Assembly: GCA_964016885.1 (NCBI GenBank)
Contig: OZ024749.1
Location: forward strand, 34,782,001 to 34,846,000
DNA: 64,000 nucleotides
Reading direction: 5' to 3'
DNA from: Eledone cirrhosa
Taxonomy: Eukaryota
Position 1 is the stretch's first letter. Each line of letters begins with the position of its first letter. Shown one piece after another: positions 41,434 to 45,009 of the stretch. Both the position numbers and the translations under genes were made by a program. The notes beneath the pieces were generated by a model. The model saw only the letters and a program-made list of their open reading frames with translations. It had not been told where the DNA came from and did no database searches.

Positions 41434-42377
41434 AGTATTTATATTTATTTAAAACCCTTCGATTATAAGTGTTTATGTAAGAGTCTTTCTTAAGTTATGT
41501 TCCAAATGCCAGCTTAATAATGAGAAAGTTGGTTATATTACTAAATTTCTTCAAAACACAAGCATTGTTGTGTGGTTAAAGAGTTCACTTCACTGCCATG
41601 AGATTCTGCTACATGGTACTTTAGGAAGTGTCCTTTACTATAGTAACAGGTTGTGAGTGGAATTTAGTAAATGGAAACTGTAGAAACCCACCATATATCT
41701 GTGTGTTTACATTTGTGTGTATGTCACTGTATTTATGTCATGTATCTTAGAGGTTCAACAGAAAAGGGATTCATAAAATTAGTTCTGACTAAATCAAAGC
41801 AGTGCTCTAGCATGGCCACTGTCTAATGACTGAAACCAATAAAAGAATAGAAAATATATTTCATTAGAAATATGGCAATGAAATGGTTAAGACCTAGTAA
41901 AACAGTTGAGTATCTATTTCCAGAGCTATATATTAGTTATGGCAGTCATTGGAGATAATATTTTATTAGTATTAATTGGTATAATTAAATATATTTCACA
42001 ACACAACCTGTTTCTATCATCTACTTCACTGTCAAACTATTATCTCTCTCTCTCTCTCTCTCTCTCTCTCTCTCTCTCTCTCTCTCATTATTAAAACAGT
42101 GGTTGTTTAGTTAAACATTCTTGCTCTTTCTCTCTAATCACACACTCACATACACAATCATACACACACACACTCACTCTCATATATCTGTATTTTACAT
42201 TCTATATGTCTCACACACACATGCTCTCTCTCTCTCTCTCTCTCTCTCTCTCTCTCTCTCTCTGTCTCTCTCTCTCTCTCTCTCTCTCTCTCTCTCTCTC
42301 TCTCTCTCTCTCTCTCTCTCTCTCTCTCTATATTAATTCAAAATATTAACAAAAATAGAACTTCTTGTGGTCAAGTA

Positions 42378-42444
42378 TATTTTATTATACATATTTCAGA
42401 GGTACTGAGCTAACTTCAACAGTACGTCCTCATCAGATAAAATA
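42378..42444 (-). ncRNA. Type I minimal hammerhead ribozyme (relative of family B)
   Basis: Minus strand: TATTTTAT-CTGATGA-GGA-C-GTACTG-loop-CAGTAC-C-TCT-GAAA-TATGTAT-A-ATAAAATA; perfect 8-bp stem I. Lies in a ~210 bp segment between (TC)n and (TA)n. Confidence 0.82.
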
Positions 42445-45009
42445 AGATGATGCATGACATACCCTGACATAGTAGATGGTTAAGATCCATCTTAAACTAA
42501 TTCTTTGATTTATTCATTGAACCTTGTTTAACCTTTAAATATATATATATATATCCATCTATTTCACAGACATCTACCCCAACTATTTCTCTAATTGACC
42601 TTTCTCTCTCTCTTCCTCTCCCTCCATGGCCACTCCTACCCAATGCACTATATTACTTATATTAATCTCGCCTAACAGGTTCACTTCACATATGTAACCT
42701 TTATCAAACATTTTCCCATCAAATGTATTATCTGTATTCACATATAAAGGTGTTCCACTCGTGACCTTCCCGTCAAATAAGTTGCCTGTATTACTTTAGA
42801 TATATCACCTTGGAATTGTTGGTGTGGTAGTGGTCCTATAAAGGTGTTCCAGCCATCGTTACCCCATTAAATAGTCTGTATTTGTTATCTCACATTATCA
42901 CAGTCTGAGTTCAAATCCCGCCGAGATTGACTTTGCCTTTCATCCTTACAGGGTCGATAAAATAAAGTACCAGTAATACACTGGGTAATTGCTGGCCTTG
43001 CGCCTAAAGTAGAAACAATTATCACAGAACACATATGTTAGTTGTTGTTGTGATCTACCCCGATTTGTCTTAATTGAACAGACCTATAATTAAGGTGTTC
43101 CAGCCATGACTATCCCATCTTGAAAATATTTGGATATATATATATATTCCATTTAAGTTATTTTTATTACCCAAAGGTAGAACTGGTAGGCAAATCATGA
43201 TGCAACAAATCAATAAAAACACTTAACGTTGGAATGGAGGAATGAAGTAAAGTATTTCTAAAATGACAATATATATATATATATATATATATATATATAT
43301 ATATATATATATATAGCCAGAGATCAGCAACAGGTGGTCACAGCTGTTAGGCCATTGAGGTATTCTCTGTCCAAAGATCATTCCAGAGGAAGGGGAGATG
43401 ATTAAATACCAGGCATTAACTTTTGTACTGATTGCCATCAAGATCTCTAGTGTCCTTCTTGGTCTCTAGACCTCTAGTGTCATTCTTGGTTTCTAGACTG
43501 CCATAGAGGAATGGAAGATGACTAAATACTAGAGAATTGACTGACCATTTTATTTTAGTTAGGGTTACCATAATGGCTGCTGGTGTCCTTGGTTCCCAGA
43601 CTGCTGTATTCCTTCGTCAATTCAGGAGGCGTGCATTGCACCTGAAGAAGGAGCCTTGTGAAGTGGAATGTCTGATGCAGTGGGTATTGCTGGTTATTCT
43701 CTATGGCAATGCTTTCACCATGCTGTTCTTATTTGCAGGATGGTGCTGAGATATACCATCCAACCAATGGTGTGGAACAGCAGTTCCCAACCTAGATCTG
43801 TGCTTCTCTGGGGGGCCTGTAAAACAGTGGTGAGATCTGTCAGCTAAGTTCACAATTTCAAGTACTTTGTTATAAAACATAATATACACACACTATTGAG
43901 TATCTATTCTTCTCTAAAACGATTTCTCTCTTTTGATTATTATTCTCAATGTATAGCAATCGGGGGGGGTTTGTAGTTAGGGGGAAGGCACCATAGAAAA
44001 ATTCATTTGGGAGTGACAATGTTTGGAGTCACTTGTGTAGTTAGCCCTTTACCCATTTCCTCTCTTTATTTTTTTTCTTTTGTCATTATAATACATTGTA
44101 AATAAAGAATTCTTTACTAAAAATAAATAGCTATTCTATTTTCTTAATAGAGCCATTGAGACAAGAGGTCTGTCCAACTATATATATGTGTGTGTATATA
44201 TATATATATATATATATATATATATATATCACACATAATAGCTGCTGTGCTCGCAATATGTGAAATATATCAATTTACACTCCATATAACCATCAAGGTT
44301 ATTGTTTATATATATAGTTTGTTGTTATTAGTTCATTCCAGCCCTCCATGCTCTGAGTTCAAATCCTGTTGAGGTCAACTTTGCCTTCTAGCTTTATTAT
44401 ATAAAGCTGTTTGTTTTAAGTGTTTAAATTTGTTATCTAAAACAACAGCAAACTAGCTGGGTCATTAGAACATTGGATAGAATGTTTTGTGATGTTGTAA
44501 TATTGTGGTTTTCTGTGCTCTGAATTCAAGTCCCACTGGGGTTATCTTTGTTTTTCATTCTTTCAAGGTCAATAAATAAAGTGCCAGTCCAATACTGGAG
44601 TCGATTCTTTCTCTCTATATGTTCCCTCCTACCTCTCTCTTGCTCCCACACTCTCTGGAAGACTTCAGCTGTGTTCAGACCTGGAGACAGACAGATGGAT
44701 GGATTTTAACAGGTATATATGCCCAAGACATATTGTATATTACAACAGAGCCCTGATGACTCCATCAGAAGATAAAGGCAGATGGCATTATCAGTAGAGC
44801 GTCAGACATCATGCTTTGCAGCATAGTTACAACTCTTTACGTTCTCGGTTCAAATCCTGCCGAGGTTAACTTTGCTTTTCATCCTTACGGGGTCGATAAA
44901 ATAAAGCACCAGTAATGCACTGGGGTAATTTCTGGCCTTGTGCCAAAGGTACAAACAATTATTAGATTGGTAGTATCGTTAGATGGCTCTGAACATTAAT
45001 CAGTATACA

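Follow-up and report, generated by a model that had tools for sequence, protein, structure and literature searches.

An unpaired cytosine kept in stem II of the hammerheads of Hydra-clade Penelope-like retroelements in the Eledone cirrhosa genome

Penelope-Like Retroelements and Their Hammerheads

Penelope-type hammerheads of metazoans cut poorly and as dimers (PMC4209133). The hammerhead of the Poseidon element of Anolis cuts only together with its protein, and the uncut RNA is the template (PMC11167929). Penelope-like elements keep hammerheads that cut poorly and can be dispensed with when insertion takes place in vitro, and the reason for this is still sought (PMC4209133, PMC11167929).

The elements considered here resemble most the Hydra clade (PMC8557442), which includes Hydra-1_Obim; they have in common with it the C-terminal GIY-YIG-type endonuclease and the CxCx5C, CxxC, CxH, DKT, and RW(K/R) motifs. 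The (TA)n targets, the inverted truncated copies, the tails, and the position of a hammerhead near the 3′ end, all described for that clade (PMC8557442), are likewise the same.

A Truncated Element Copy in the Window

The window, i.e., the whole stretch of 64,000 nucleotides of E. cirrhosa DNA that was analysed (GCA_964016885.1, contig OZ024749.1), contains at 42329–42552, on the minus strand, a segment inserted in (TA)n, which, judging from its sequence, is almost certainly a 5′-truncated copy of a Hydra-clade Penelope-like retroelement. The segment is made up of the element 3′ end, with a type I hammerhead, and of an inverted “tail”:

42329–42489, minus strand: 3′ end (pseudo-LTR part) of a 5′-truncated Hydra-clade Penelope-like element that passes into a (TA)n/(CT)n tract
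42494–42552, plus strand: inverted copy of the element tail with a TA run, matching the forward-orientation tail after the hammerhead of locus L162

In a DNA search of the genome, query positions 64–224 find 99% matches at no fewer than 12 further places, and they match the 3′ end of locus L163 at 95%; the first 59 nt of the segment are the inverted version of the tail downstream of the L162 hammerhead. The same search (3.0 Gb) returned at least 48 matches, with 40 of 1,057 candidates scored, which marks the segment as a dispersed repeat. TA runs flank both ends in 25 of 29 other loci, head-to-head inverted copies with tails occur at several loci, and a common 3′ end, beyond the predicted cut site, is reached by all 42 aligned copies. 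The element family shows insertion in (TA)n, truncation at the 5′ end, inversion of copies, and a tail.

The connection to a coding sequence is provided by L163, in which a 3′ UTR of about 2 kb, without a TA break, links the 95%-identical end to an endonuclease frame. Read by eye, the endonuclease frames of L163 and L162 have the CxCx5C linker and the CxxC and CxH motifs, and no CCHH; from these two loci only the endonuclease part of the family of the window copy was recovered, not the reverse transcriptase (RT) part. Sister families comprise full-length elements with two pseudo-LTRs and RT-endonuclease frames, some of which are open over 738–821 aa; the RT is followed by a C-terminal GIY-YIG-type endonuclease in L070, L224–L228, L238, and L271. 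The DKT motif is present in L070, L135, L225–L228, and L238, RWK in L238, and RWR, RWI, or RWT variants in other sister frames. Pfam returned GIY-YIG in L070 only, with 22.4 bits, just below the 22.6 cut-off, and gave no match on the other element frames tested.

Two other assignments were discarded. The frame adjoining the family C hammerhead in L063 and L149 was rejected as a parent, since a 76-nt TA tract lies between them and the frame ends in a different hammerhead; the L149 frame belongs to another Hydra family, the hammerhead of which is without the mismatch discussed below. A non-LTR retrozyme would require tandem hammerhead units of 200–400 nt, whereas a single copy is present here and the best 30 loci are solitary in TA tracts. 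Metazoan retrozymes are also small, protein-free DNAs, related to pseudo-LTRs and bearing a type I hammerhead; however, they form tandem repeats (PMC7229834; bioRxiv 10.64898/2026.07.22.740005), while the segment described here is the solitary truncated end of a protein-coding element, joined to an inverted tail. The copy itself is likely inert; for the host locus it is ordinary repeat DNA, one truncated insertion among tens of thousands, and the motif that it carries is a retroelement RNA motif, not a host intronic RNA.

Other repeats were met in the course of the analysis. The window contains a LINE-type reverse transcriptase frame (53641–54906, minus strand), a fragment at 7088–7558 (minus strand) that we take to be transposase-like, and a member of an abundant, SINE-like short repeat family at 42925–42984, which recurs at ten other places. 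Elsewhere in the genome, locus L230 (G000:C2:359519000-359528500) is a tandem array of units of about 3.9 kb, of which at least five are among the matches listed; every unit combines a hammerhead with a partly inverted RT-endonuclease frame of the canonical (non-Hydra) Penelope type.

Architecture of the Hammerhead

As read from the sequence and from folding predictions, the region 42378–42444 has the plan of a type I hammerhead, with the core boxes, a NUH cut site, three stems, and stem I open. Its parts, in hammerhead numbering, and a conserved motif upstream of it are the following:

42456–42463, minus strand: 8-nt conserved motif similar to a 5′ splice donor; in this family it is predicted to pair with the 5′ strand of stem II, G at 42458 being opposite C10.4
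42378–42444, minus strand: type I hammerhead motif (stem I, core, stem II, stem III)
42444–42437, minus strand: stem I, 5′ strand
42436–42430, minus strand: core, C3–A9
42429–42420, minus strand: stem II, 5′ strand, followed by a 12-nt loop II
42426, minus strand: C10.4, the fixed unpaired cytosine
42407–42398, minus strand: stem II, 3′ strand
42401, minus strand: position 11.4, the partner of C10.4, C here and A or U in other amplified families
42397–42395, minus strand: G12–A14
42387–42394, minus strand: 8-nt, near-palindromic stem III, with pairing predicted only between two hammerheads
42385–42386, minus strand: predicted cleavage site, 3′ of A17 (H17 = A, 42386)
42385–42378, minus strand: stem I, 3′ strand

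Stem I consists of 8 bp, A/U, and stem II of three pairs, the first of which is G·U, then of C42426 opposite C42401, and then of six further pairs. Folding of the isolated 68-nt motif predicts the stem II pairs with probabilities of 0.87–0.98 and the mismatch with 0.00; stem III has a predicted pair probability of 0.00 in the monomer, and a double hammerhead is predicted to fold at −22.8 kcal/mol vs. 2 × −5.6 for the singles. The core columns vary in at most 1 of the 42 aligned copies.

A previous, sequence-only reading of this locus had reported a stem II built of three pairs, a C-C mismatch, and a longer helix, and had compared it with that of another family, B; this organization was found again both at 42378–42444 and in the two family B copies of the window:

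3590–3655, plus strand: family B hammerhead copy, same plan, C·C
4489–4553, minus strand: second family B hammerhead copy, C·C

The sequence of stem II does differ from that of family B, on an otherwise identical plan, while the reported match in stem I is true overall, with the exception of the 4489–4553 copy, which has G·U where the others have A-U. The remainder of the element had been considered not obviously similar: this applies to the stretch directly 3′ of stem I, which aligns no better than shuffles (433/500), but not to the families as such, which are homologous beyond the hammerhead. Indeed, families B and C have the upstream 8-nt motif in common and parent endonucleases that are 50% identical; the tails of two related families align weakly (score 46 vs. 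29.7 ± 5.2; 6/500 shuffles).

Both family B copies lie within nested inverted structures (window positions 3300–4730), and the first is accompanied by an inverted partial hammerhead at about 3405–3504. Two further hammerhead motifs, at 56720–56806 and 9340–9426, both on the minus strand, belong to other families; their stem II arms are very long, and position 4 is not mismatched. Rfam gave no match over the window at the gathering threshold, nor over 42000–43000 at E ≤ 10, all three hammerheads being missed; this result lowers the case for membership of the curated Rfam families, not that for the fold. In this genome, a very large class of hammerheads can escape both descriptor and Rfam searches.

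The Mismatch across the Genome

Conservation of the mismatch was examined within this genome, by pattern counts and by a pair count on an alignment. The main pattern, in which core and stem III were fixed and stem II was left free, has 49,979 genome matches, while its reversed control has none. Position 10.4 is C in 47,401 of these matches and another base in 2,578; in 3,959 the C is retained and its partner is not C. By subtraction, C·C occupies position 4 of stem II in 43,442 of the 49,979 (86.9%); the other partners are A in 2,667 (5.3%), U in 1,061 (also by subtraction), and the pairing G in 231 (0.46%). The family of the window copy, or its closest variant, accounts for 12 of 100 among the matches listed for this pattern, as counted by eye.

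These minority states differ in their distribution. About three quarters of the 100 C·A matches listed belong, by eye, to one amplified family and five to a second one, whereas the 100 C-G matches listed are scattered over many families, as expected of mutations that followed insertion. For a sister family in which stem III is different, 21,898 matches were obtained, and C·U was counted by eye in 97/100 among the matches listed; family H, which differs in stems I, II, and III, has 5,559 matches and C·C in 95/100 among the matches listed (by eye). With a further pattern, which overlaps the set of 49,979 in part, 10,223 matches were obtained, about nine in ten of those listed being C·C. No amplified family in which C10.4 is paired was seen among the families examined. 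No reading frame is linked to families H, I, or K; for family H such a link was sought in the fetched loci and none was found. Two loci of family H (L221 and L222) appear to consist of units of about 2.4–3 kb in which no reading frame is present; these may represent a non-autonomous element that carries a C·C hammerhead.

Since amplified C·A and C·U families exist, only C10.4 and its unpaired state are constant: in the sequences of this genome the conserved feature is an unpaired C10.4 with C, A, or U as partner, not the C·C mismatch as such. The expectation that the mismatch would persist in a larger set is thus borne out for the unpaired state of position 4 and for the retention of C10.4, and not for C·C itself. 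Contigs from four sequencing runs, of four other organisms, list no change at 42426 or 42401; these are 1–5 low-depth contigs per run, of uncertain origin, and were given no weight.

Selection on C10.4

From the fetched loci, 398 distinct hammerheads with an 8-nt stem III were obtained, forming 27 clusters with at least two copies; singletons were dropped. In this sample, which is non-random because loci were partly chosen for non-C·C states (the U·C majority of one cluster comes from that choice), position 4 is unpaired in 25 of the 27 clusters, and positions 2, 3, 5, 6, and 7 are paired in 25 of the 27; a deletion form makes up one of the clusters, and the two that are paired belong to other families. 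Conservation is also good at position 7, with A-U in 22 clusters. The pair 10.1–11.1, as a rule G-C in hammerheads, is mostly A-U or G·U in these families, and it is mismatched in some amplified ones.

The alignment comprised 16 of 22 family representatives; six with long insertions or an odd parse were omitted. A non-standard pair 4 is common to all 16, while each of the other eight stem II pairs shows two-sided changes, so that C10.4 is the sole invariant column of stem II. Over stems I and II, two-sided changes were observed in 14 of 20 pairs, a number that kinship can inflate, that no shuffle out of 500 reached, and that compares with at most 7 in slid controls; the earlier proposal that covariation reveals selection on the fold is therefore well founded. 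Loop II varies between families in both length and sequence. The stem columns change slowly, and stem I positions 1.5–1.7 are nearly invariant in the alignment, even in families where they are unpaired; U1.7 participates in the canonical hammerhead contact.

Between deep families, the parent proteins are 40–50% identical in the endonuclease and 50–62% in the RT, and none of 33 fourfold-degenerate sites is invariant across six parent frames, their pairwise identity being 19–43%. With synonymous sites saturated in these proteins, a fixed C10.4 is not accounted for by descent alone. Sequence comparison thus establishes that stem pairs covary, that C10.4 is fixed opposite a partner that is free except for G, and that its retention exceeds the neutral expectation; selection on C10.4 is highly probable, and it acted on the master retroelements, not on the 42329–42552 copy or on a host gene. 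The absence of G at 11.4 is weak evidence when taken alone, with about four inferred changes at that position and C-to-G changes being rare.

A protein tree was built with FastTree from 31 frames of this genome, midpoint-rooted and with no outside references. The mismatch-bearing families with linked frames all fall on one side of a split with support of 0.993, opposite to the mismatch-free L149 family, suggesting that the feature probably arose once; most frames on the L149 side, and one on the mismatch side, have no linked hammerhead. Several other hammerhead families of this genome, including the Hydra family of L149, are without such a mismatch, which is therefore not a general need.

Possible Roles of the Unpaired Cytosine

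We lean, if only slightly, towards a model in which C10.4 makes a base-specific contact, either with stem I or with an element protein, that is needed by a weak, conditional ribozyme; a tertiary or protein contact had already been suggested in the earlier reading, there for the C-C mismatch. In this model, master elements would transcribe tandem pseudo-LTRs; with stem III unable to form, hardly any activity is predicted for a single hammerhead, which would cut as a dimer or with the help of the element protein, the latter possibility being applied here by analogy with Poseidon, i.e., from another clade. Stem II exceeds the length that the usual loop-loop brace allows; C10.4, placed in a 1 × 1 internal loop, would thus be exposed either to the reverse transcriptase-endonuclease or to the A/U-rich, distal portion of stem I. 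The height of this loop corresponds to the end of the canonical 4-bp helix II, where its loop meets helix I. The uncut RNA may serve as template, which would fit with copies that retain about 50 nt beyond the cut site. The asymmetry of position 4, with C fixed on one strand and C, A, or U on the other, fits a base-specific contact as well; the A/U stretch of stem I is, however, shifted or absent in families J, K, and M, and no partner base for C10.4 was found. Taken as a mechanism, contact stands at about even chances; within it, an RNA tertiary contact is a tentative proposal, and a protein contact a less probable one.

A plain brake ranks behind contact with stem I or an element protein, and we regard it as unlikely. 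The mismatch would here weaken the three core-proximal pairs of stem II, resulting in a slow ribozyme and in the survival of uncut template, with no contact involved. In favour of this explanation, closing position 4 in silico stabilizes the hammerhead fold by about 5.8 kcal/mol, from −5.6 to −11.4 kcal/mol, and the inner pair 10.2–11.2 is often less probable than the outer helix in context (0.33 vs. 0.96 in family G; 0.05 vs. 0.78 in family K); the free partner and the cut site retained in copies agree with it, too. However, a likely inner helix is kept in several families (0.81 in B1, 0.82 in E5), and any mismatch should do for a brake, yet every amplified family with linked frames has C at position 10.4, over a span in which synonymous sites are saturated.

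A conformational switch appears improbable, and it fails as a general explanation. It supposes that C10.4 pairs with a G elsewhere, in a helix that turns the ribozyme off; in family C, that of the window copy, this would be the G of the upstream, splice-donor-like motif, so that intron retention would be coupled to silencing. The 8-nt motif lies 27–48 nt upstream of the hammerheads of families B, C, and E, 135 of 152 copies of the subclade have it with no more than one mismatch, and introns are possible in Penelope pseudo-LTRs (PMC4209133). Folding predictions for the whole 224-nt element leave stem II a probability of about 0.01; the motif is the main partner of C10.4 in five of eight family C copies, and C10.4 is paired with a probability of 0.67 vs. 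0.36 when the upstream part is shuffled. This pairing is nevertheless predicted only in the C, C2, CA, and C3 families, and not in B, E, G, H, I, J, K, and M; its absence from eight other family groups makes it a local switch at most. Furthermore, the stem II strand varies opposite an unchanging motif without any clear compensation, and four exon-side probes revealed no spliced copy in the fetched loci.

A bolder combination, which we consider rather doubtful, would have an ancient subclade of Hydra elements exchange the loop-loop brace for a flipped-out C in a 1 × 1 loop, docking on stem I or in a protein pocket, so that cutting would take place only inside a ribonucleoprotein; in the lineage of the window copy the same C would also pair with the splice-donor-like motif, tying intron retention to ribozyme silencing. 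If the replacement of the brace were true, the more than 77,000 genomic copies would constitute a natural mutational scan of a new hammerhead sub-type.

Two explanations that dispense with an RNA function of C10.4 are less probable still. Neutral inheritance, by which the mismatch would be kept through shared ancestry alone, agrees with the grouping of the mismatch-bearing families with linked frames on one side of the protein-tree split, but is very improbable in view of the saturation of fourfold-degenerate sites over the same span, of the differing lengths and sequences of loop II, and of the changes in every other stem II column. Even less credit can be given to a DNA-level signal, in which the C would belong to a promoter or to a recognition word of the endonuclease: promoters do occur in pseudo-LTRs (PMC6765202), but the variation of the flanking bases preserves RNA pairing and not a DNA word.

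Least plausible of all is regulation of a host gene by the 42329–42552 copy from a putative first intron, in which the earlier reading had placed it antisense, since, although a candidate plus-strand first exon exists, the copy would be antisense to the candidate transcript, the gene is without database support, and the divergence of the copy from its family, about 3%, is that of any other copy. The candidate first coding exon (23146–23250, plus strand) runs over 35 codons from an ATG to a GT donor, and it has no match in Pfam or in the ESM Atlas. Pfam searches on 92 window frames (from a filtered list of 172) and on three longer ones gave only zinc-finger matches on one repeat-like frame and one sub-threshold match; 13 plus-strand frames of the downstream 10 kb gave nothing usable.

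Comparison with Described Elements

The retention of one non-core base as firmly as the catalytic core, over proteins that are 40–60% identical, directs attention to one nucleotide, for which the C·C, C·A, and C·U families, together with the Hydra family without the loop, are natural controls. A literature search over titles and abstract openings found no description of a fixed, unpaired C10.4.

With regard to the Hydra clade, none of its 26 rows in File S2 of PMC8557442 has an internal stem II mismatch, in a table the descriptor of which may exclude such forms. The elements of this clade are generally under 3 kb (PMC8557442), whereas those described here have 3′ UTRs of about 1–2 kb and full lengths of about 3.3–4.4 kb.

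The Penelope-like hammerheads with a palindromic helix III (Cervera and de la Pena 2014, PMC4209133) are of the same type I, with a long helix II, A/U-rich flanks, a predicted dimer, and many families per genome. Unlike those, the hammerheads studied here have position 9 followed by 10.1 with no additional nucleotide, the pair 10.1–11.1 is mostly A-U or G·U instead of G-C, and a 1 × 1 internal loop is fixed in stem II. Among 44 rows of Fig. S3 of that report, where the descriptor may likewise exclude mismatched helices, there are one sea-urchin C·A at the fourth pair and three kinds with bulges, and no C·C.

The Poseidon element PAc of Anolis (Frangieh et al. 2024, PMC11167929) shares the hammerhead in the pseudo-LTR, the tail, and copies that retain the cut site. 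Between the upstream hammerhead and the start codon, all full-length families (L070, L104, L135, L224–L226, L238, and L271) have a pair of similar short motifs, located at the two ends of the tail, and these may mark the two reverse-transcription start sites described for PAc. That element belongs to another clade and its hammerhead overlaps the start of the frame (PMC11167929), whereas in the elements described here the frame starts about 240–295 nt downstream.
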